The notes below the pieces were generated by a model. The model made no database searches, was not told the origin of the DNA, and saw nothing but the letters and a program-made list of their open reading frames with translations. From an uncultured Candidatus Saccharibacteria bacterium (GTDB lineage: Bacteria; Patescibacteriota; Minisyncoccia; Phycocordibacterales; Zambryskibacteraceae): DNA of 64,000 nt. Shown piece after piece: positions 6,503 to 43,114 of this stretch; the stretch's first letter is position 1, and every line of letters begins with the position of its first letter. Where the stretch lies: the NCBI GenBank assembly GCA_964509605.1, contig CAZDXF010000001.1, positions 8,276 through 72,275 on the forward strand. The letters run 5' to 3'. The translations under genes and the position numbers were made by a program.

Positions 6503-7555
6503 ATGAAAGAAAAAGCGGGATATTCCGCTCTGTACAGAAAATATCGACCGCAAGACTTTTCTGAAGTGATCGGGCAAGATCATGTTGTAAAAGTCTTGGA
6601 GTCTTCTGCGAAAGATGGAAATATCGCTCACAGTTATCTTTTCGCCGGTTCTCGAGGGACGGGTAAGACATCTCTAGCCAGAATTTTTTCAAAGAGCATC
6701 GGCTGTTCTCAAAACGATTTGGTGGAAATAGACGCTGCTTCAAATCGTGGAATAGACGATGTTCGTGCCATTCGCGAGGGAGTCGTATCTCTGCCTTTCG
6801 AATCTCCTTACAAAGTTTACATAATAGATGAAGCGCATATGCTTACAAAAGAAGCATGGAATGCATTTCTCAAAACCCTTGAAGAGCCACCTTCTCACGC
6901 TGTTTTTATTTTAGCGACCACAGAAATGGAAAAAATTCCCGAGACCGTTTTATCTCGTTGCCAAATTTTTCAATTTAAAAAACCTGACACAGCGATGCTC
7001 AAAAATCTCGTCTCAAGCATTGCAAAGAAAGAAAAAGTTTCTATAGATTCTTCAGGTGCGGAGCTCATCGCTCTTTTGGGCGACGGCTCTTTTAGGGACA
7101 CTCTCGGAATCTTGCAAAAAGTCATTGGATTTTCAAAAGATGGAAAAATTTCAGCAGATGAAATAGAGACTGTCGCTGGTGCGCCGAGAGGGGAGACGGT
7201 CAACGCTTTTATAAAAGCTATTTCAGAAAAGGAAGCTGGTAGAGCAATAAAAACCATCCGTGATGCCAGAGAGTCCAATTTGGATATGAAAGTGTTTATA
7301 AAGCTTGTTTTACACAAAATGCGACTCGTTCTGCTTTTGAAATTTGCAAAGGAGATGGAAAAAGATATAAAAGCAGAAGTTTCTGAAAATGACCTCATCT
7401 TCTTAAAAGAAATTTCAGAATCAAAAGAAAGCGCGATTTCTTCCTCAACACTTTCCGAATTTTTGTTAGCAAGCGAGCAAGTTGGCAGGTCTTTTATCCC
7501 AGAGCTTCCAATAGAACTTGCGATAATCCGCCTTTTGGGGAACAATACTCCCTAG
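6503..7555 (+). CDS. dnaX: DNA polymerase III gamma/tau subunit (short form)
   Basis: YRKYRPQDFSEVIGQ, Walker A GSRGTGKTS, DEAH-like IIDEAHML, and a sensor motif. Confidence 0.8.
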   Translation: MKEKAGYSALYRKYRPQDFSEVIGQDHVVKVLESSAKDGNIAHSYLFAGSRGTGKTSLARIFSKSIGCSQNDLVEIDAASNRGIDDVRAIREGVVSLPFESPYKVYIIDEAHMLTKEAWNAFLKTLEEPPSHAVFILATTEMEKIPETVLSRCQIFQFKKPDTAMLKNLVSSIAKKEKVSIDSSGAELIALLGDGSFRDTLGILQKVIGFSKDGKISADEIETVAGAPRGETVNAFIKAISEKEAGRAIKTIRDARESNLDMKVFIKLVLHKMRLVLLLKFAKEMEKDIKAEVSENDLIFLKEISESKESAISSSTLSEFLLASEQVGRSFIPELPIELAIIRLLGNNTP

Positions 7556-7604
7556 CTTTTATTTTCTAAAAGCTAAAAGCTATTAACTATAAACTGTTTT
7601 AATT

Positions 7605-7695
7605 TTGCCGGTTCGTCCCTCGGCCGTAGCTCGGAGGCCAAGGCCTACGGGCGGCTCACCCGTAGGGCTATGCCCGAGGGAGGCTAATGGTAGGA
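7605..7695 (+). repeat. duplicated 5' segment of tRNA-Gln (nt 1-23) split by a 67-nt GC-rich stem-loop (7618-7684)
   Basis: TTGCCGGTTCGTC (7605-7617) plus TAATGGTAGGA (7685-7695) equals 7946-7970 of the intact tRNA. The insert is CCTCGG...CCTACGGG-cggctca-CCCGTAGG...CCGAGG. Confidence 0.7.
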
Positions 7696-7944
7696 TATAT
7701 GCATTTTTTTGTTTATGTATTGAAAAGTGAAAAGGATAACAATTTTTATATTGGCTGTACTTCAAATTTGCAAAATAGACTTAAACAGCATTTATCTGGT
7801 AAAGTTCTTTCTACAAAAGCTCGATTACCATTAAAGCTTATATACAAAGAGTTTTTTATTGACAAGTATGAAGCGTATAGAGTTGAAAGATTTTATAAGA
7901 CCGCCGTTGGTAAGCGAGTTTTGAGAAAGAAGATAAACAAATAA
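7687..7944 (+). CDS. GIY-YIG nuclease, YhbQ/UPF0213-like (about 81-85 aa)
   Basis: FFVYVLKSEKDNNFYIGCTSNLQNRLKQHLSGK and YRVERFYKTAVGKR match the YhbQ-type GIY-YIG (URI) domain. An alternative ATG lies at 7699. Confidence 0.7.
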   Translation: MVGYMHFFVYVLKSEKDNNFYIGCTSNLQNRLKQHLSGKVLSTKARLPLKLIYKEFFIDKYEAYRVERFYKTAVGKRVLRKKINK

Positions 7945-7947
7945 AAT

Positions 7948-8018
7948 TGCCGGTTCGTCTAATGGTAGGACACCTCCCTTTGGAGGAGGCTATTGGGGTT
8001 CGAGTCCCTGACCGGCAG
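7948..8018 (+). tRNA. tRNA-Gln (anticodon TTG)
   Basis: Acceptor TGCCGGT/ACCGGCA with a U1:A72 pair and G73. Anticodon arm CCTCC-CTTTGGA-GGAGG. T-loop TTCGAGT. CCA is not encoded. Confidence 0.8.
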
Positions 8019-8194
8019 CAATGCAAAGTTTTGATAGCTTTTGCTATCTAAAACTTGCATACTGCCAGGTAGGAAGTGAATTTCTTCACTTCCGTTAGGA
8101 ACTCGAAAAGCGCAGTTATGTTTTGCTAACAAGCAAAACAGACGAGCTAGGGTCGTGAAATTTTGCGAGCGACGGCGAGCAAAATATTCCTGAC

Positions 8195-8213
8195 CGAGTC
8201 CCTGACCGGCAGC
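8195..8213 (+). repeat. 19-nt direct repeat of the tRNA-Gln 3' end (att-like remnant)
   Basis: CGAGTCCCTGACCGGCAGC at 8195-8213 is identical to 8001-8019. Confidence 0.7.
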
Positions 8214-8311
8214 CAACTCGTGATAGGTTATCGCGCTCGAGACGCATCTAGGAAACACTTCCCAAACTCTGCATAGAGTAGTATTTTGTGCAAAAGCGAT
8301 AGAATAAATAT

Positions 8312-8755
8312 ATGGCAGTTAAGAGGCTAAAAAATGGAGAATCAGGAAAAACTGGTGAACAGGACATAGTAAATCTTGTGCCTTGTCCAAATTGTTCAAA
8401 AAAGTTAATGGTTCTTCCGCCAAATTTTCCTCTCTACGATATTCAGTGTACTGGATGTCAGTTTCGTGCCCAAGTTAAAACAAATCGGTGTAAACCTAAG
8501 TCAATTTTATTTGGTGCGGGATGGCAAATCATGAATAAAGTTTTAAAATCTGGTTACATGACCCCACCGCTTTTTCTGAACTTTAAGTGGATAGAAAAGG
8601 GTCAACAAAAACAAGAGATAAGATTTTATCCATTTGTACCAAAGAAAAATCTATCAAACTACACACTTTCACCAACAGCTCGCAGGGCTAACTATGAAAT
8701 GTTTACTTATGTAGGAATGGATAAATTGCCGTATTTCTTGGTTTATGAAAAATAA
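8312..8755 (+). CDS. Zn-ribbon nuclease-like protein (possible DpnI/DRP-type PD-(D/E)xK core)
   Basis: CPNCSKK...PLYDIQCTGCQFRAQVKT parallels the DpnI catalytic segment CPNCG...VADFYCNHCSEEFELKSK, with D and xK conserved and Q in place of E. Confidence 0.3.
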   Translation: MAVKRLKNGESGKTGEQDIVNLVPCPNCSKKLMVLPPNFPLYDIQCTGCQFRAQVKTNRCKPKSILFGAGWQIMNKVLKSGYMTPPLFLNFKWIEKGQQKQEIRFYPFVPKKNLSNYTLSPTARRANYEMFTYVGMDKLPYFLVYEK

Positions 8756-9467
8756 TAATATTGAAAAAAGAGAATTTCCAGGCGTCTTAGAAGATATTTC
8801 GCCAAGACATTTAATTGATGAAAATAATAAAAATGACATCCAAAGCTTTTTCTTAATTTTAGGGCTTATATTTAACGATCTTAAGGGGTTGATCTTTTTT
8901 CAAAAATTTATCGAAGATAATTATAGAAAACCCGATATTAATGAAGTTTCAGCGCATGCTGGGGAATACGGAGGTTTAATTGCTCAAGCAGACAGGTTGC
9001 TTATAGCAACAGTTGGAGAGTTTTTTAAATTTATTGAAGAAAATACATCTGTTTTAAATAGCATATCTTTTTTACTGCTTCTTAAGAAGGATAATAACCA
9101 AGATTATAAAAATGCATGGAACGATCTTATAAAATTAGGTGATGGATCCACAGTTTTATCAAAGATCGCGAGAGTCAGGTCAAATGTGACATTTCATTAC
9201 GATAATTCTATGGAGGAATTAAGAAGGGGCTTTATAAATAGTTTTTTTACAAAAGAAAAAGATTTAACTCAGCATAGTCGGGCGTACTATTCTTTTGGGG
9301 ATGATATGGAAAAGACACGTATGTATTACTCAGATGCAGCCACGCAGAGTTATATAAATTCTATTCTAGCTATTGAAGATCGAGCTAAAATCAGAGAGGC
9401 CATAAACAGCATGAATCATACAATCCAATGGTTATTGAGAGTATATTTAAAGAATATCAAAAAGTAG
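8745..9467 (+). CDS. hypothetical protein (240 aa); weak Rx5H HEPN-like motifs
   Basis: No recognised domain. RSNVTFH and REAINSMNH motifs are present. Sits in the accessory island next to the RM genes. Confidence 0.3.
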   Translation: MKNNNIEKREFPGVLEDISPRHLIDENNKNDIQSFFLILGLIFNDLKGLIFFQKFIEDNYRKPDINEVSAHAGEYGGLIAQADRLLIATVGEFFKFIEENTSVLNSISFLLLLKKDNNQDYKNAWNDLIKLGDGSTVLSKIARVRSNVTFHYDNSMEELRRGFINSFFTKEKDLTQHSRAYYSFGDDMEKTRMYYSDAATQSYINSILAIEDRAKIREAINSMNHTIQWLLRVYLKNIKK

Positions 9468-9515
9468 CTCGAGATCTGCTGTTTAAGATACTAAAATTTA
9501 GCTAATTTCATTAAT

Positions 9516-9803
9516 ATGAATAACAAAGAGCAAAAGCAATTGCAAATCAGTTGGGTTCTCGTATGTCTTGGGTCTATTCTGGCGTTTTTTGTGAATATTG
9601 CTGCTAATTCTTTTTACGATATGTATTTTGTCGATGGTTTTAGAAAAAAATTTATTGTACCGTTTTTAGCGTTCTCTTTTATAAGTTTGTTCTTTGCCAA
9701 TTTTTTCTCCTATACTTTTGATCGTATAAGTGAGATAAAAAGCAACAATTACAGCTTTAAATCCTTTTTTTGGTCTTATATAAAGAGTTGGTTTAAAAAA
9801 TAA
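9516..9803 (+). CDS. small membrane protein (2 TM)
   Basis: Two hydrophobic helices over 95 aa. Confidence 0.35.
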   Translation: MNNKEQKQLQISWVLVCLGSILAFFVNIAANSFYDMYFVDGFRKKFIVPFLAFSFISLFFANFFSYTFDRISEIKSNNYSFKSFFWSYIKSWFKK

Positions 9804-9867
9804 TTCTAGACAATCATAGTTATCCACAATTCAAAGGTGAACTGTGGTTCACTTTTGAAGAAAAAGG

Positions 9868-11103
9868 GTGTATAATTTTTGTAGCATGAATGCGTTGCAA
9901 AAAAAGAAACAACTCGGCCAGTTTTTTACATCCAATTCAGATTATATTTTAAGTGGTTTAGAGAAATTTGTTTCTGGTAAAAAAGTTCAAGACCCCTTTG
10001 CCGGAGATGGAGACCTCCTTTTTTGGGCCAAGAGAAATGGGGCAAAAAAAATTTCTGGTTTTGATGTAGACAGACAACGCTTGAAATACAGATTTATCAT
10101 AGAAAACGATTCTCTGATAAATCCAGTTGGTTATAATTTTGTTATAACTAATCCTCCATATTTAAATGTAAACAAAAGTTCAAAGGACATAAAAGAAAAA
10201 TATTTTTCTAAATTCAAGGAATTTGAAGATCTTTATCAAATATCTGTTTTCAATATTTTAAATAGCGAAGAAGGAATAATAGTTTTACCAATTAATTTTT
10301 TATCTGCAAACAACGCAAAAAGGATTAGAAGATATTTTTTTTCTAAGTTTGAAATTGTAAAACTGAATTATTTTAAACATCAAGTGTTTGATGATACGAC
10401 ATATAATGTTGTTGCTTTTTACTACAGAAAACTGAAAATGCCCGTAAATAAAATTGAATTTCCAATGTTCATATATCCAGAATCAAAAAAAATAACTATA
10501 AAAATAGAAGAAAAATATGACTGGACTATTGGTGGCGACTTTTTACACAAAATAGAATTAACAAAGAACTCTCTTGGCATAAGAAGGTTGTTAGAAGACG
10601 ATGTGGAGTCTGGAAAAATCTCTTGCAAGACTGCTATCGGGCATTTAAAGAAAACAAAAAACATTAGTGTCTCCGAAGGCTTTATAAATCGAGTAAGAAA
10701 AAACATAATAATTTTAAAAGCTATTGATAGTGGTACAGAAAAAGGAAAGATTGCTTTGGAGGACATAAGATCTCATCAGATTGATGCTTTATTGAGCAAA
10801 GAATCGTCAAGACACATGATTCATCTAGTTTTTCCTGAATCGGTTTCTGTTTTTGATCAGGAATTGCTTATAAAACTTTTTAACAAACATTTTTCTGAGG
10901 CTAGAAAAAAATATTCTTCTCTTTTTCTTACTAACTATAGGGATAATGATAGAAAGAGAGTTCAGTTTGATTTTGTTTACAAGTTTTTGAACATGCTTTA
11001 TCTTGATAATATAAAACAAGTTCAGAATCGCTTGTTTGAGAATGTCTATGAATATCTGGATACAAAAAAGCCTAAAATTAGCCAATCAGTCAAATTATCT
11101 TGA
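9868..11103 (+). CDS. gamma-class N6-adenine DNA methyltransferase (Type II RM)
   Basis: Motif X GQFFT, motif I DPFAGDGDLL, motif IV ITNPPY. Confidence 0.8.
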   Translation: MYNFCSMNALQKKKQLGQFFTSNSDYILSGLEKFVSGKKVQDPFAGDGDLLFWAKRNGAKKISGFDVDRQRLKYRFIIENDSLINPVGYNFVITNPPYLNVNKSSKDIKEKYFSKFKEFEDLYQISVFNILNSEEGIIVLPINFLSANNAKRIRRYFFSKFEIVKLNYFKHQVFDDTTYNVVAFYYRKLKMPVNKIEFPMFIYPESKKITIKIEEKYDWTIGGDFLHKIELTKNSLGIRRLLEDDVESGKISCKTAIGHLKKTKNISVSEGFINRVRKNIIILKAIDSGTEKGKIALEDIRSHQIDALLSKESSRHMIHLVFPESVSVFDQELLIKLFNKHFSEARKKYSSLFLTNYRDNDRKRVQFDFVYKFLNMLYLDNIKQVQNRLFENVYEYLDTKKPKISQSVKLS

Positions 11104-11854
11104 TGCTCTGTCTGATATTTATCCAATTCAAGACAATAAAGAAGAGACTCGGTTAGAAAAAAATAGACTGCAGGAGATTAGAAAGGCCTTTAAAACAAAA
11201 GACCATAATAAATTATTGACTCTTCTTTTGGAAGAAGAAAGGTTTCCCTTTGACGATCCTTATGTAGCTTTTCTTCGGATGGACAAAACCTCTGTTTCTC
11301 GCAATCCGAAGACGGTAAGGAGATTATTGAGCAAGGTTTATTCTATTGGTTTAGATAATGTAATTAGCGGAATAAATAGACCAAAATCTTCTTCTAGGCA
11401 ATTTGGCAGTTATTTTAAAAATTGGATAACTCAAAATTTTCCCGTAGTTTCAGAAAAAGAGATCCTTGTTAAAAACAAAGGAGTTTTTGTACTAAGAGGC
11501 GGAGATGAATCTCTAAAGAAGTTTGTAAATAAAAACTTTGGAATTGGGCAAAGAAAAGGTTTAGATTTTGTTATGAAAATCAATAGTCATTATTTAATAG
11601 GGGAGGCTAAGTTTGTTTCTGCTTCTGGGGGAACGCAAGATAAAAGCATTAGAGAGACAATTACCTTTGTTAAAAAAACTAAAGGCAATGTCATTAGAGT
11701 TGCCGTTGTTGACGGAGTGATTTGGTTAGACAGAAAGAATAAAAGGGAAAAAAATCAGAGTCTGTATCAAGAGGTTATAAATTTAAAAGATGGTAGAAAC
11801 ATTATGAGCGCTCTATTGTTAAAAGATTTCGTAAACAGTTTAAAAAAGATTTAA
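11036..11854 (+). CDS. putative restriction endonuclease partner (PD-(D/E)xK-like)
   Basis: Overlaps the 3' end of the MTase gene. DFVMKINSHYLIGEAKFV is a D...E-A-K type motif. Confidence 0.45.
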   Translation: MRMSMNIWIQKSLKLANQSNYLDALSDIYPIQDNKEETRLEKNRLQEIRKAFKTKDHNKLLTLLLEEERFPFDDPYVAFLRMDKTSVSRNPKTVRRLLSKVYSIGLDNVISGINRPKSSSRQFGSYFKNWITQNFPVVSEKEILVKNKGVFVLRGGDESLKKFVNKNFGIGQRKGLDFVMKINSHYLIGEAKFVSASGGTQDKSIRETITFVKKTKGNVIRVAVVDGVIWLDRKNKREKNQSLYQEVINLKDGRNIMSALLLKDFVNSLKKI

Positions 11855-13136: not shown

Positions 13137-13188
13137 GTGGGGTTAAGAAAGTTTAAATGTGGAAAGGTGGCAGAGGGCGGGGTGTATA

Positions 13189-13518
13189 ATGAAGTTATTA
13201 CAGTATTTTTGCCCAAAAACTATGAATTGGTTTAAAAAAATAATTGCACACTACAGAAACAATCCCGGAGGATATTGGTTTAAAAGAAATATTTATGGTT
13301 GGGGCTGGGTGCCGGTTATGTGGCAGGGTTGGCTTGTAACTATGATTTCTATAGCTTTTATTTCTGGGGGTATCTATATTGGAGAACGAGACGACGCGCC
13401 CGGAGTGGCACTTATAGGTATTTTACTTGGTGCCATGCTCGTATTTGGCTTTGGTCATTGGAAAGGAGAAAAGATGTGCTGGCAGTGGGGCTTGCCAAAA
13501 GAAGAAAAAGATAATTAA
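13189..13518 (+). CDS. membrane protein
   Basis: Hydrophobic helices. ATG at 13189 directly follows TATAAT at 13183-13188 and could be leaderless. Confidence 0.35.
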   Translation: MKLLQYFCPKTMNWFKKIIAHYRNNPGGYWFKRNIYGWGWVPVMWQGWLVTMISIAFISGGIYIGERDDAPGVALIGILLGAMLVFGFGHWKGEKMCWQWGLPKEEKDN

Positions 13519-14469: not shown

Positions 14470-14766
14470 ATGGGGGTATATAATGCTTTTATTATGAAAA
14501 CAGATTTAAAAAACAAGCTTGTAAGCCGTCTAAATCGCATAGAGGGTCAGGTGAGAGGTATAAAGAAAATGGTTGATGATGAAAAATATTGTGTGGATAT
14601 CATTACTCAGGCTCAAGCAATCAAAAGTGCCCTAAGTTCATTTGAGACGCTAATGCTCCAAAACCATTTGGAGACTCATGTAATGCACCAGATGAGTCAT
14701 GGTAAAGGGGAAAAAGCAATTAAGGAGATACTCAAAATTTATAATGTGTCTCAAAAGAAAAAATAA
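14470..14766 (+). CDS. csoR: CsoR/RcnR-family metal-sensing repressor
   Basis: LVSRLNRIEGQVRGIKKMVDDEKYCVDIITQ, plus conserved Cys/His positions. Confidence 0.7.
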   Translation: MGVYNAFIMKTDLKNKLVSRLNRIEGQVRGIKKMVDDEKYCVDIITQAQAIKSALSSFETLMLQNHLETHVMHQMSHGKGEKAIKEILKIYNVSQKKK

Positions 14767-14767
14767 A

Positions 14768-16786
14768 ATGGATCATAGTCATTGCCACAGTCATAGTGAC
14801 ATAAAAACACAAAACCACGACAAGCACGAAGGTCATAGTGCTTCAATGTTTCTAAAAAAGTTTTGGTTAAGCTTCGCTTTGACCATACCTGTAGTTTTGT
14901 ATTCAGATATAGTTGAAACAGTTTTTAAATGGTCTCCTCCTCAATTTTTCGGATCTGATTATTTGTCTTTCGTACTGGGAACTATTGTATTTTTTTATGG
15001 CGGTTGGGTATTCATCAAAGGGGCGTGGAAAGAGATAAAAGCAAGGTTGCCAGGTATGATGACTTTGATTGGTGTTGCTATATCAGCTGCCTATCTATGG
15101 AGCATTTACGCTGTTTTTTCAGGTGACGAAACTTTGTTCTGGGAGCTTACCACTCTTATAACCATAATGCTTTTTGGTCATTATTTGGAAATGCGTGCTG
15201 TCTCTAATGTTCAGGGTGCTCTTAAAGAACTGTCAAAGTTATTGCCTGATACAGCAGAAGTTTTTCGCAACAACAAAACAGAAACAGTATCGCTTTCCGT
15301 GCTACAAGAAGGAGATTTGGTTTTAGTAAGACCGGGTGGAAAAATTCCAGCTGATGGGGAAATTGTAGACGGTTTCTCAGATGTTGATGAGTCTATGATT
15401 ACGGGAGAATCTAATCCTATTTCTAAAAATGTTGGTGACTCTGTAATTGCGGGAACAATAAACGGTGATGGTGCTCTTAAAATAAAAGTAGCAAATATAG
15501 GCGAAAAAACTTTTTTAGCTGGAGTTATGCGCTTGGTAGCAGAGGCCCAGTCTTCAAAATCTAGATTACAAATTTTGTCTGACAGGGCGGCTCTTTATCT
15601 CACTATTTTAGCTGTTGGCGGAGGTATTATTACTTTAATGTCGTGGCTCTTGGCTGGCTCAGAAGTTGGTTTTGCTGTTTCCAGACTTGTCGCGGTTCTG
15701 GTTATTGCTTGTCCTCATGCTCTGGGTTTGGCTGTGCCTTTGGTTGCGTCAATCTCAACCACTAAAGCGGCTCAAAATGGTTTTCTTGTAAAACAAAGAA
15801 TTGCATTGGAAGTAGCCAGAAGTATTGATACGGTTCTTTTTGATAAAACAGGAACGCTGACCAAGGGAGAGTTTGGAGTTGTAAACATATGGAGTAGCAA
15901 GAGCTACAAAGAAGAAGATGTTTTAAAACTTGCCGCATCACTCGATTCTCTTTCTGAGCATCCGATTGCTAAAGCGATAGTAAACAAAGCTTTAGAAAAA
16001 AATATAAAGCTTTTAAAGCCAGAAAATTTTGAAGCCATAAAGGGCAGGGGCGTAAAAGCGACTGTAGATTCAAAAGAAGTTTATGTCGGAGGACCGTCTT
16101 TAATTGAAAGTTTCAATATAAATTTGTCAGATGAAATTGAAAATCAAGTAGCTCTTGCTGGCAAGAAGGGACAAACAGTTGTTTTTGTCATTGAAAAAGG
16201 CGCACTTGTTGGAGCTATTGCACTGGCTGATATCATTCGCGAAGAATCAAAAGATGCTTTGAAAAAACTCAGATCAATGGGTATTGAAACCGCCATGATA
16301 ACGGGGGATTCGGAAGATGTGGCTAGGTGGGTGAGTGAAGAACTGGGAATTGATATGTATTTTGCCAGAGTTTTACCTGGAGAAAAATCTGAAAAAGTAA
16401 AAGAATTGCAAAAACAAAATAAAAAAGTAGCTATGGTTGGTGACGGTATCAATGACGCCCCGGCTCTTACTCAAGCGGATCTTGGAATCGCCGTTGGAGC
16501 AGGAACAAATGTTGCAATTGAATCGGCGGGAATTATCCTGGTTCGCAATGACCCGAAAGATATTGTGAAAATATTACAGCTCTCTCAGATGACATACAGT
16601 AAAATGATTCAAAATTTGTTCTGGGCCACTGGCTACAATGTGGTGGCGATGCCTTTGGCGGCCGGTGCCATGGCATTTAAAGGCGTTATTCTCGAACCAG
16701 CTGTTGCTGCTGTGCTCATGTCTTTAAGCACGATTATTGTTGCTTTTAATGCAGTCCTTTTAAAAAGGAAACGGTTGGGGCAATAA
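14768..16786 (+). CDS. copB: P1B-type heavy-metal (copper) translocating ATPase, CopB-like (CPH motif, His-rich N-terminus)
   Basis: MDHSHCHSHSD, TGES, CPH in TM6, DKTGTLT, GDGINDAP. Start reassigned to ATG 14768 after the csoR stop. Confidence 0.85.
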   Translation: MDHSHCHSHSDIKTQNHDKHEGHSASMFLKKFWLSFALTIPVVLYSDIVETVFKWSPPQFFGSDYLSFVLGTIVFFYGGWVFIKGAWKEIKARLPGMMTLIGVAISAAYLWSIYAVFSGDETLFWELTTLITIMLFGHYLEMRAVSNVQGALKELSKLLPDTAEVFRNNKTETVSLSVLQEGDLVLVRPGGKIPADGEIVDGFSDVDESMITGESNPISKNVGDSVIAGTINGDGALKIKVANIGEKTFLAGVMRLVAEAQSSKSRLQILSDRAALYLTILAVGGGIITLMSWLLAGSEVGFAVSRLVAVLVIACPHALGLAVPLVASISTTKAAQNGFLVKQRIALEVARSIDTVLFDKTGTLTKGEFGVVNIWSSKSYKEEDVLKLAASLDSLSEHPIAKAIVNKALEKNIKLLKPENFEAIKGRGVKATVDSKEVYVGGPSLIESFNINLSDEIENQVALAGKKGQTVVFVIEKGALVGAIALADIIREESKDALKKLRSMGIETAMITGDSEDVARWVSEELGIDMYFARVLPGEKSEKVKELQKQNKKVAMVGDGINDAPALTQADLGIAVGAGTNVAIESAGIILVRNDPKDIVKILQLSQMTYSKMIQNLFWATGYNVVAMPLAAGAMAFKGVILEPAVAAVLMSLSTIIVAFNAVLLKRKRLGQ

Positions 16787-17904: not shown

Positions 17905-18417
17905 ATGAAAAGATTAATTCCGGTATCGATAATTGTTTTTTTGCCAAAGCTAGCATTGGCTCACTGTCCTCTTTGCACGGTTGGAGCAGGAGCACTAGCT
18001 GTTTTCGCTGCTTCAATAGGGATTTCTTCAATGGTTGTGGGAGTGATGATAGGCGGGTTCGCTCTTGCTTTATCTACGTGGTTAGCAAGATTACCTAAGA
18101 AAAATTACATACCATACCAGCGCTTTGTTCTTGCTCTAGTTGTGTTTATTGGAACCATTGTTCCTATAATGCCACTTGCAAAAGAATATGGCCCTCTTTA
18201 TGTGCGAGTGTTTGGTGAGTATGGAGGGGTCTTCCACAATACATACACGGTAAATCTATTTTTGGCCGGATCAATCATTGGTGCTTTACTTATGTTGGTT
18301 GGTCCGTATTTGAGTAAGCAACTTACAAAAATCCGAGGAAGTACACTTCCATTTCAAGGTATCAGCATATCGCTACTTCTTCTTATTGTTGCTTCTCTAA
18401 TAATTGAAATGGTCTAA
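17905..18417 (+). CDS. membrane protein with HCPLC motif
   Basis: Four TM helices; Cys pair in the first helix. Confidence 0.35.
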   Translation: MKRLIPVSIIVFLPKLALAHCPLCTVGAGALAVFAASIGISSMVVGVMIGGFALALSTWLARLPKKNYIPYQRFVLALVVFIGTIVPIMPLAKEYGPLYVRVFGEYGGVFHNTYTVNLFLAGSIIGALLMLVGPYLSKQLTKIRGSTLPFQGISISLLLLIVASLIIEMV

Positions 18418-18842
18418 TGAACCCAACACTATTGTTTCTAATCATATTTTTTGTTGGTGCCATAATTTTTCAAAAAATTTTTAAGAAAAATTTTTGCGCC
18501 ATGTGTGTATCAGTTACGCTAACTTGGCTAACACTGTTGGTTTTTTATTTTCCTGCCAAGATAGACGCTTTGATTTTAGGAATTCTTATGGGGGGTAGCG
18601 CCGTCGGTCTTGTATATTATCTTTTTAGATCTAACGGTAGTTTTCAAATTTTTAAATTTCCGTTTCTCATATCACTATTCTGGTTGATTTATATTTTTCT
18701 TGGAGATAGTCAGGGTTGGATTAAGGATTTTGTCATTGTGGCTGGCGTATGGATTTTATTCATAACGATATTTGTGTTTAATAAGAATGAGTATCTAAGA
18801 GATTGGGGACAGAAAATTATAGAATGCTGTAAAAATTGGTAG
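18417..18842 (+). CDS. membrane protein
   Basis: Four TM helices; start overlaps the upstream stop. Confidence 0.35.
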   Translation: MNPTLLFLIIFFVGAIIFQKIFKKNFCAMCVSVTLTWLTLLVFYFPAKIDALILGILMGGSAVGLVYYLFRSNGSFQIFKFPFLISLFWLIYIFLGDSQGWIKDFVIVAGVWILFITIFVFNKNEYLRDWGQKIIECCKNW

Positions 18843-24025: not shown

Positions 24026-24130
24026 ATGACCGCAGTCACGGTGAACGGCCAGCTGGTCCTGGTGTCGAGTGGCGCCTCGGTGGTCCAGGCCATGCTCCAG
24101 GCGGCCGAGGAGCGGGAGGCGGGGCGCTGA
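24026..24130 (+). CDS. GC-rich 34-aa ORF resembling the N-terminal half of ThiS/MoaD (possibly a gene fragment)
   Basis: SD GGGGGAGG 6 nt upstream. MTAVTVNGQLVLVSSGASVVQAML resembles the ThiS start (M-x-I-T-V-N-G-E). About 70% GC. Confidence 0.35.
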   Translation: MTAVTVNGQLVLVSSGASVVQAMLQAAEEREAGR

Positions 24131-24152
24131 CTCTCTAGCGCTCCACCTCAAA

Positions 24153-24195
24153 GGGCGAGTCAATCCGGAAGGAAAGACTCGCCCTTTATCATTTA
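24153..24195 (+). terminator. GC hairpin terminator
   Basis: GGGCGAGTC...GACTCGCCC followed by TTTATCATTTAT. Confidence 0.55.
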
Positions 24196-42948: not shown

Positions 42949-43024
42949 TGGTGGACCCTACCGGATTCGAACCGGTGACCTCCTCATTGCAAATGAGGCG
43001 CTCTACCAACTAAGCTAAGGGCCC
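42949..43024 (-). tRNA. tRNA-Ala (anticodon TGC), CCA encoded
   Basis: GGGCCCT acceptor with G3:U70, anticodon loop TTTGCAA, T-loop TTCGAAT, 3' ACCA. Confidence 0.85.
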
Positions 43025-43094
43025 GTTTTTTTAAAGTTAAAATTTTAACTAACTAGCAACATGTCGCTCGGACCCTGTCCGCCCATCTGGCGGA

Positions 43095-43114
43095 AACTAA
43101 GCTAAGGGCCCGTT
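43095..43114 (-). repeat. 20-nt duplicate of the tRNA-Ala(TGC) 5' end
   Basis: AACTAAGCTAAGGGCCCGTT is identical to 43008-43027. It is followed by the hairpin CCGCC-agatg-GGCGG. Confidence 0.65.

Follow-up and report, generated by a model that had tools for sequence, protein, structure and literature searches.

A GIY-YIG nuclease gene and nested GC-rich palindromes ahead of a tRNA-Gln gene in Patescibacteria: a probable selfish cassette

The tRNA-Gln locus and its nearest described relatives

Selfish nuclease genes normally spare their host gene by residing in self-splicing introns or inteins. Here, we describe a locus of an uncultured Candidatus Saccharibacteria bacterium (GCA_964509605.1, contig CAZDXF010000001.1) in which an 81-amino acid (aa) GIY-YIG nuclease is encoded directly ahead of an intact tRNA-Gln gene whose 5′ end is present twice; the window, that is, the whole stretch of DNA analyzed, is 64 kb long. 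Positions 7605–7947 are probably a small selfish DNA cassette that occupies the 5′ part of the tRNA-Gln gene. The minimal nuclease seems to spare the tRNA by another route than intron or intein residence, namely duplication of the 5′ end of the gene, probably with borrowed tRNA expression signals. Two known kinds come nearest, namely selfish GIY-YIG elements that are free-standing and insertions that target a tRNA gene and regenerate it.

GIY-YIG open reading frames (ORFs) in non-intron rRNA insertion sequences from bacteria of the candidate phyla radiation (CPR) were reportedly described by Brown et al. in 2015. All GIY-YIG proteins of CPR rRNA genes were later found in non-intron insertion sequences (Tsurumaki et al. 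2024, PMC11270868). Those insertions share protein family and host phylum with the locus studied here and are likewise small, stand-alone and outside group I/II introns. The published cases lie in rRNA, and the ones that we found there have 10–14-nt inverted repeats and no target duplication; the window cassette, unlike them, sits at the 5′ end of tRNA-Gln, duplicates ~25 nt to regenerate the gene and has palindromes in the displaced copy. T4 SegB is a free-standing GIY-YIG homing endonuclease in a tRNA gene cluster (PMC2330249). The T4 Seg and I-TevI systems resemble our locus in the placement of a GIY-YIG gene beside tRNA genes, and spread by cleaving the nuclease-free allele is also the mechanism proposed here. 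Their enzymes have 200–250 aa with DNA-binding domains, whereas the window protein has 81 aa and the catalytic domain only, and they show neither the target duplication nor the palindromes of the window cassette. The window ORF is free-standing, in neither a group I intron nor an intein. As expected of a homing endonuclease gene, both occupied and empty alleles of a conserved target were found, with a cassette younger than the host divergence. Tyrosine-integrase islands (Islander database, PMC4383910) and prophages in tRNA/tmRNA (transfer-messenger RNA) genes offer a third likeness, in the split target, the regenerated copy and the boundary fragment; the window differs in having no integrase, a duplicated 5′ rather than 3′ end, a single 246-bp ORF and a displaced fragment that is itself interrupted.

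In the open-access literature, we found no description of GIY-YIG cassettes at tRNA/tmRNA genes or of palindromic elements in Patescibacteria, and no report linking a GIY-YIG nuclease to such palindromes. The tRNA 5′ cassette layout appears undescribed, and among the cases of the wider family presented below, only the rRNA one has been published (PMC11270868).

The cassette and its target comprise the following features.

7606..7617, plus strand: displaced 5′ tRNA-Gln fragment, first piece, tRNA nt 1–12 (exact 12-mer TGCCGGTTCGTC)
7618..7684, plus strand: 67-nt GC-rich block (73% GC), which folds as a three-way stem-loop
7685..7695, plus strand: displaced 5′ tRNA fragment, second piece, tRNA nt 13–23 (TAATGGTAGGA)
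7699..7944, plus strand: GIY-YIG nuclease ORF, 81 aa, Slx1/UPF0213-like minimal catalytic domain (Pfam PF01541, E = 9e-16)
7948..8019, plus strand: intact, presumably functional tRNA-Gln(UUG) (ARAGORN; Rfam 55.5 bits against a gathering score of 29)

The tRNA-Gln survives because its first ~23 nt, together with 1 nt upstream (T at 7605 matches tRNA nt −1), are present twice. The 12-mer TGCCGGTTCGTC occurs only at 7606 and 7948 in the 64 kb (chance expectation of 0.05); the 11-mer TAATGGTAGGA, with copies at 7685 and 7960, is weak alone (~1 expected) but colinear with the 12-mer. A preliminary description of this DNA had recognized the upstream duplication of the first 23 nt and placed the split after nt 11; with the ARAGORN start, the duplication stands and the split moves to nt 12. 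The same description let the ORF start overlap the fragment, whereas with the likelier start, ATG at 7699, the ORF abuts it. That the tRNA-Gln is intact, as also claimed there, is agreed on by ARAGORN and Rfam. The 246-bp ORF ends 3 nt before the tRNA-Gln start, and the 7685..7695 piece supplies an AGGA Shine–Dalgarno-like motif directly ahead of it. An assembly artefact was ruled out by an identical Logan assembly and by the same layout in dozens of other loci: the Logan assembly of SRR15237813 is base-identical over fragment, hairpin, ORF and tRNA start (its reads are possibly shared, its assembler is different), and its contig terminates within the tRNA-Gln.

Recurrence of the layout and properties of the nuclease

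Homologues of the nuclease were surveyed with one genome per species, which gave 77 loci, nearly all labelled as Patescibacteria metagenome-assembled genomes (MAGs). In 33 of 33 loci with a GIY-YIG at least ~55% identical to that of the window, the gene adjoins an intact tRNA-Gln(UUG or CUG) or tRNA-Glu (the latter in two) and shares its strand, with neighboring genes that differ between loci. The tRNA follows the ORF by 0–43 nt in 30 of the 33, the exceptions being L020 (247 nt), L029 (121 nt) and L040 (intact tRNA upstream). Palindromes of one GC-rich family, here called family A, interrupt the tRNA copy beside the ORF in all 33, this copy being the 5′ fragment upstream in 32 and a decayed full copy downstream in L040. 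Three unrelated contigs carry the ORF 3–7 nt upstream of an intact tRNA-Gln and, before the ORF, tRNA nt 1–12, the GC palindrome CCTCGGCCGTAGC...CTACGGGCGAGGC and tRNA nt 13 onward.

Fragments were measured in 47 loci, metagenome loci included. In 34 of them, nt 12 is the last of the left piece, and inserts are most often 40 nt long; the fragment stops at nt 20–29, a few nucleotides before the ATG, and 0–8 nt upstream of the tRNA are duplicated too. At lineage-specific acceptor-stem and D-loop positions, the fragment mostly agrees with the local tRNA. The combination of ORF, fragment and palindrome was seen in more than 60 independent loci. Because the layout recurs and the DNA between the 5′ repeats is the nuclease ORF alone, the only gene of the cassette, the GIY-YIG gene is agent or cargo of the rearrangement and not a bystander.

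Close relatives were chosen as DnaX homologues, with identities confirmed by tblastn. The comparison of their tRNA-Gln loci, suggested in the preliminary description, turned up empty, occupied and differently occupied sites.

L089 and L090, DnaX 84%: tRNA 72/72 identical; without ORF, fragment and palindrome
L091, DnaX 80%: GIY-YIG 44% identical, unrelated palindrome family, fragment split after ~nt 10
L092 and L094, DnaX 75% and 71%: tRNA-Gln 5′ side empty
L013, DnaX 59%: cassette 72% identical
L012, DnaX 52.5%: cassette 81% aa identical, the most similar in the genome set

Nuclease subtype and palindrome family thus both differ between closely related hosts (the window and L091), and the resemblance of cassettes does not follow that of DnaX. 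In five syntenic pairs, the synonymous divergence (dS) of the ORF was 0.38–0.91, compared to 1.1 to saturation for flanking genes, and from a dS this far under that of the flanks, we conclude that the cassette is mobile. Substitution ratios show purifying selection on the ORF, with a median dN/dS (nonsynonymous to synonymous) of 0.22 and values below 0.5 in 144 of 144 pairs; the ORF is intact in 31 of 32 loci. These comparisons favor an active gene that was gained horizontally, and also lost, over one inherited vertically. GIY-YIG proteins are listed among the genes that Patescibacteria exchange (PMC12455944). Against a phage origin, 2.9 million viral contigs yielded just one distant relative.

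Residues Y6, Y17, R27, H31 and E63 are invariant among 14 homologues and, taken with the dN/dS values, make the nuclease look active. The closest sequences in the PDB were the UPF0213 proteins 1zg2 and 1ywl, followed by SLX1. An AlphaFold model (predicted local distance difference test score of 95.3) gave UPF0213, Slx1–Slx4 (including complexes with branched DNA) and HIGLE as best Foldseek matches, with query-normalized template modeling scores of 0.59–0.71 to UPF0213 1zg2 and to Slx1 7cq2, 6seh and 4xm5. Foldseek E values were 5e-5 and 7.5e-4 for Slx1 and UPF0213, respectively, versus 0.4 for I-TevI; a predicted fold nearer to UPF0213, Slx1 and HIGLE than to I-TevI points to structure-specific rather than sequence-specific recognition by the nuclease, which is suggestive for a gene found beside palindromes and genes of strongly structured RNAs. 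Slx1 and HIGLE cut branched DNA (flaps and Holliday junctions), with which the titles of the PDB entries agree. These best sequence and fold matches, the YhbQ-like UPF0213 proteins included, differ from the window protein as housekeeping repair enzymes, and Slx1 requires Slx4 and a RING domain. On mobility or tRNA-gene association of UPF0213, nothing was found in the open-access literature.

An alternative upstream ATG at 7687 would give an 85-aa reading, of which the Pfam GIY-YIG match spans residues 7–76; the 81-aa start matches the homologues and the Logan gene call. An exact database look-up of the 85-aa reading returned no record because gene callers take the 81-aa start. Gene callers sometimes begin the ORF within the tRNA fragment and palindrome (P0005, P0012 and the window ORF 7605–7730), and such starts yield spurious N-terminal extensions, for example ...PSAVAR.... 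At the other end, some ORFs run into the tRNA and stop at the D-loop TAA, giving a C-terminal ...CGIV. In related loci, the GGTAGGA of the D-arm stands 3–10 nt ahead of the ATG.

Palindromes in the displaced tRNA copy

Rickettsia palindromic elements (RPEs) and the yeast var1 GC cluster insert in frame into protein genes. Family A resembles RPEs, yeast mitochondrial GC clusters and repetitive extragenic palindromes (REPs) in being short, palindromic, GC-rich in AT-rich genomes, dispersed, nested and tandem. It differs from all of these in that about one third of the sampled copies lie between nt 12 and nt 13 of displaced tRNA-Gln/Glu fragments beside one GIY-YIG subtype, and from REPs in the absence of a transposase of the Y1/RAYT (REP-associated tyrosine transposase) type. 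No Y1/RAYT or TnpA transposase was found, the GIY-YIG ORF being the sole gene beside the hairpins in ~60 loci. The 67-nt block of the window resolves into two nested elements.

7618–7652 plus 7680–7684, plus strand: outer 40-nt family-A element in canonical orientation, with arms CCTCGGCCGTAGC... and ...CTACGGGC/GAGGC
7653..7679, minus strand: inner 27-nt palindrome, inverted, with minus-strand reading CCTCGGGCATAGCCCTACGGGTGAGCC and arm matches at 7667–7679 and 7653–7665

The outer element is interrupted at GGGC/GAGGC by the inner one. With the inner element removed, its length and termini are those of the 40-nt element at the same tRNA position in L002, L012, L023 and others. The inner element is near-identical to an L002 element (CCTCGGGCATAGCCCTATGGGCGAGCC) located in the T-loop of a decayed tRNA copy, and the nested layout of the window recurs in L035. 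Elsewhere, family-A elements show differing nestings, inverted copies and other positions (after nt 4–7 or nt 21); they range from 26 to 54 nt, with palindromic termini that are conserved around a variable center, and the element (CCTCGG...GGGCGAGGC) is always preceded by C, mostly TC, and inserted without target duplication. Family-A arms stand upstream of the ORF in 30 of 30 scored type-A loci, compared to 0 of ~45 loci with distant GIY-YIGs; at the level of these arm matches, the palindrome family is shown to co-vary with the nuclease subtype. The minimum free energy of the 67-nt block has a z-score of only −2.0, and the significance of the block therefore rests on conservation elsewhere rather than on folding energy.

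Copies can also multiply in place. In L016 (2349–2476, five 26-nt units), L100 (4244–4403) and L144 (1114–1233), the displaced fragment contains three to five family-A palindromes in tandem, as units of 26 or 40 nt. L023 and L025, with identical ORFs and flanks ~98.5% identical, differ by one palindrome copy, from which it follows that the number of copies changes rapidly.

Arm searches on both strands and BLAST detected no second copy of the palindrome in the 64-kb window, and in 386 kb of genome-locus flanks, the arms are limited to the cassette and adjacent decayed tRNA copies. A restriction of the palindrome to the GIY-YIG/tRNA locus, which these flanks seemed to indicate, was overturned by a metagenome scan with a 24-base arm pattern. 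The scan yielded at least 120 matching stretches, and 90 matches in 80 loci were examined. Among these 90 listed matches, 33 lie in the D-loop context of a tRNA, 27 of them no more than 600 nt from a GIY-YIG ORF; ORF-less footprints account for four (L099 and L129), and ~34 have no GIY-YIG gene within 600 nt despite adequate flanks. Many of these ~34 fall within long ORFs. Judged by these matches, the 67-nt hairpin belongs to a dispersed, RPE-like family of palindromic elements. The earlier suggestion that it is a small mobile element is thereby borne out, with two nested members in place of one, and the search for further copies proposed with it found related palindromes dispersed in metagenomes.

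In-frame family-A copies of 30, 39 or 54 nt, read as xLGRSP(A/T)TGEA, were noticed inside Dus-, LepA-, EF-Ts- and ClpB-like ORFs of metagenome loci (L131, L116/L121, L122, L113, L148/L172, L128 and L133). One of them is a clean 10-aa insertion against the window's own Dus; the LepA, EF-Ts and ClpB assignments were made by eye, and in-frame insertion is a trait of the family, not of the window copy. These in-gene palindromes resemble RPEs and seem to be unreported for Patescibacteria.

A known RNA family (hammerhead or other ribozyme, or intron) was rejected for the hairpin: the Rfam scan of 7400–8400 at E ≤ 10 returned, beside the tRNA, only far-sub-threshold mir-3012 and mascRNA-menRNA matches. 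A bulge–helix–bulge intron or split tRNA was likewise discarded, as the host copy ends at nt 23 and full-length palindrome carriers have damaged acceptor stems. The palindromes fold equally well on both strands with few G-U pairs, and there is a weak trend toward the element's own strand.

Proposed mechanism, alternatives and related insertions

In the cassette reading, the downstream copy of the duplicated end completes an intact tRNA directly behind the ORF, and the upstream copy is a dead fragment, split after nt 12 by two nested GC-rich palindromes. The ORF is probably expressed from the tRNA promoter, with the D-arm GGTAGGA as its ribosome-binding site, and the tRNA would then be cut from the same transcript. 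The nuclease may break the DNA of tRNA-Gln/Glu genes, perhaps at cruciform or cloverleaf structures, and repair of the break from the occupied allele would produce homing-like spread. A palindrome would break up the ~25-bp direct repeat and so protect the cassette from deletion by repeat recombination. If only interrupted copies survive, the palindrome occupancy in 33 of 33 loci would reflect survivorship.

Several points weigh against this reading. Cleavage activity, target site and transfer are all putative, and the 81-aa protein has no separate DNA-binding domain, which leaves sequence-specific homing unexplained. Simple double-strand-break homing also leaves unexplained why nt 1–12 and 13–25 track the local tRNA while the palindrome tracks the cassette type. 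No sigma-70 consensus promoter was found upstream of the fragment, the consensus being uninformative for this phylum; with no sigma-70-like promoter detected there, cotranscription of ORF and tRNA is a conjecture. The equal folding of both strands fits a DNA palindrome and is compatible with a role in RNA as well, and the role against deletion is putative. The empty sites could stem from precise loss via the direct repeats, dS over ~84 codons is noisy, and, the taxonomic labels of MAGs being loose, transfer across lineages rests on DnaX divergence only. Finally, L014, L020, L028 and L040 fit better with movement of the ORF together with a whole tRNA.

Such a unit, in which the nuclease gene and the complete tRNA-Gln gene recombine with the resident tRNA by Campbell-type circle integration or break-induced replacement, is a rather unlikely alternative, though one with specific loci in its favor. 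Its product would be tRNA–GIY-YIG–tRNA, of which one copy has to stay intact while the second, as it decays, receives palindromes and shrinks to a 5′ fragment. L040 has just this order, an intact tRNA, the ORF and a full-length decayed tRNA with palindromes in its D- and T-loops; near-full decayed copies lie beside the intact one in L020, L028 and L002; and in L014, the acceptor stem of the intact tRNA (CTGCCGGA...) matches neither the fragment upstream nor the decayed copy downstream (TGCGGG...). Fragment ends that vary from nt 20 to nt 29 are also what erosion predicts. The window tRNA, though, is 72/72 identical to that of the cassette-free L089, with the downstream DNA kept, and looks resident, and the palindrome position at nt 12 and the tight spacing from fragment to ATG are too uniform for lineage-by-lineage erosion. 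We rate as improbable, and below the whole-tRNA unit, that the GIY-YIG is a vertically inherited host gene cotranscribed with tRNA-Gln, perhaps repairing a highly transcribed locus, with fragment and hairpin as a conserved regulatory structure or 5′ leader that some lineages have lost. Strong purifying selection, strict co-orientation and spacing with the tRNA, the ancient DnaX–tRNA-Gln neighborhood and clean empty sites from precise loss via direct repeats would all suit a host gene. Its distribution would not, being patchy among the closest relatives, one of which has the other subtype in place, nor would an ORF dS far below the flanks, the occurrence of the same nuclease family beside many tRNAs, tmRNA and RNase P RNA as well as within rRNAs, the ORF-less footprints in L099 and L129, or palindromes variable in number, orientation and position, which are unexpected in a regulatory leader.

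The preliminary description had read the locus as a tRNA attachment (att) site remodelled by successive integrations and excisions. Remodeling by mobile DNA is upheld; repeated integration and excision is not, as no integrase was detected and the nuclease ORF alone lies between the 5′ repeats. Direct repeats of tRNA segments (5′, 12 + 11 nt; 3′, 18–19 nt) with a regenerated tRNA fit att islands and the cassette model alike, integrases classically use tRNA genes as att sites, and the start of the displaced 3′ fragment described below lies in the T-loop, a known integrase sublocation. A restriction–modification island also follows just downstream and is missing in L089. Even so, that the repeats are attL/attR scars of integrase islands or phages, with the GIY-YIG gene and hairpins as left-over cargo, is very improbable, the least credible of the alternatives. 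Use of the tRNA 5′ end is rare among integrase islands. Between 8312 and 18842, the scanned ORFs contained no detectable integrase or recombinase (of the ORFs with at least 110 aa, 13159–13518, 17905–18417 and 18417–18842 were unmatched in Pfam, and 10422–10766 on the minus strand was unscanned), and no further copy of the 3′ att-like repeat exists in the 64 kb at up to three mismatches. The 5′ duplication encloses a lone 246-bp ORF in an architecture kept over dozens of genomes with the ORF always there, and the 3′ duplication of relatives encloses not an island but a GIY-YIG cassette with terminal inverted repeats.

The selfish cassette that we favor may be extended, tentatively and with more doubt than belief, to a two-component mobile system guided by DNA structure, in which the nuclease would drive its own insertion with target regeneration and mobilize its cognate palindromes in trans, as RAYT does for REPs. 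The nuclease would recognize hairpin or cruciform DNA, both in the palindrome and in the cloverleaf-prone genes for tRNA, tmRNA, RNase P RNA and rRNA. If true, this system, a GIY-YIG mode of DNA transposition or homing that follows structure and not sequence, would also account for the in-frame palindromes in Patescibacteria proteins.

The 3′ side of the tRNA-Gln has features of its own.

8020..8195, plus strand: four hairpins and tRNA-like debris (...GTAGGA..., ...AGGAACTCGAA), fold z = −7.7
8195..8213, plus strand: displaced 3′ tRNA-Gln fragment, T-loop to 3′ end, followed by the native downstream flank CAACTCGTGATAGG

The hairpins lie at about 8021–8060, 8072–8093, 8119–8140 and 8157–8189, one more than the three counted originally. 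The repeat of the last 18–19 tRNA nt at 8195–8213 was noted correctly at that stage: the 18-mer GAGTCCCTGACCGGCAGC has just two copies, at 8002 and 8196 (0.01 expected), and BLAST lengthens the repeat to 19 nt. L089 and L090, which have no 5′ cassette, retain the first ~90 nt behind the tRNA as well as the displaced 3′ fragment and its native flank; the 3′ fragment is therefore a separate event. A 3′ copy is present in 7 of 39 related loci and always starts at the same T-loop position. In L094 (5701–6150), a type-2 GIY-YIG gene sits at the tRNA-Gln T-loop with the same 18 nt (T-loop to 3′ end) duplicated on both sides and perfect 14-nt terminal inverted repeats (ACTTCGGCAAGCTC / GAGCTTGCCGAAGT), a signature that is, as read from these repeats, transposon-like with an unusually long target duplication. 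A similar type-2 insertion, its GIY-YIG 37% identical to that of the window, occurs in L092 (7047–7510). The block GAGnnnGGGTCGYGA stands just before the 3′ fragment of the window, right after the type-2 ORF in L092 and also in L004. Positions 8020–8213 are possibly an ORF-less remnant of such a 3′-side, T-loop-targeting cassette; of all parts of the anatomy, this one is the least secure, with the shared block as its weakest link.

Beyond the debris, ~100 nt past it, a restriction–modification cluster spans 8312–11854 with genes for a DpnI-like protein, an Eco57I-like methylase and a Tsp45I-type restriction enzyme and two unknown ORFs. At that position, L089 has a metal-sensing repressor gene and a P-type ATPase; the P-type ATPase of the window lies at 14699–16786. 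Upstream of the tRNA-Gln locus are ClpB-like, Dus and DnaX genes, and the window as a whole is bacterial with a GC content of 37%.

More distant relatives of the nuclease occur at other structured-RNA genes, and the family was found at Gln, Glu, Asn, Pro, Asp, Trp, Tyr and Ser tRNAs. In L039–L050, L053, L055, L058, L059, L061, L062 and L068 (for example L046, 2501–3225), relatives with 46–58% identity occupy the space from smpB to the tmRNA (ssrA) 5′ end, along with repeated units of the form TTTTAGGGG/CTAAA, palindrome, TCGCCCGAAC, palindrome. By this layout, the smpB–ssrA loci are the tmRNA counterpart of the tRNA architecture. One relative abuts the 5′ end of RNase P RNA (L070, 2498–3127), others lie within 16S and 23S rRNA genes (L083 and L087/L088), and others interrupt a four-helix-bundle ORF resembling the '23S rRNA IVS (intervening sequence) protein' (L052/L054/L063); the rRNA and protein-gene insertions are bounded by 10–14-nt GC-rich inverted repeats. 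In L006 (3880–4475), a 48%-identical GIY-YIG stands among tRNA-Ser fragments riddled with small unrelated GC hairpins. The L006 contig is unlike Patescibacteria (LacI and sugar ABC transporter neighbors), and the phenomenon may extend past that phylum.

These loci extend the known GIY-YIG elements of rRNA insertions to tRNA, tmRNA and RNase P RNA genes, and the palindromes among them bring to light a GC-rich family whose in-frame insertions lie in conserved proteins of these reduced genomes. The layout is common in Patescibacteria and explains tRNA fragments, contig breaks at tRNA-Gln and spurious N-terminal extensions of gene calls. Were the nuclease guided by structure, it would be a very small candidate tool and a new case of mobile DNA choosing safe harbors.

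Two further places in the window drew attention. At tRNA-Ala(UGC) (42949–43024, minus strand), the first 17 nt and an upstream AAC are duplicated at 43095–43111, 87 nt upstream of the gene in tRNA orientation, and are followed by the GC palindrome TCCGCCAGATGGGCGGA, as in tmRNA-type cassettes; the locus (42949–43111) has no intervening ORF and resembles an ORF-less footprint of the same type of event. At 24027–24190, a 105-nt mini-ORF (MTAVTVNGQLVLVSSGASVVQAMLQAAEEREAGR), ~70% GC in an AT-rich genome, looks foreign; its ribosome-binding site, GGGGGAGG, is strong, and a hairpin resembling a terminator, AAAGGGCGAGTC...GACTCGCCCTTT, accompanies it.

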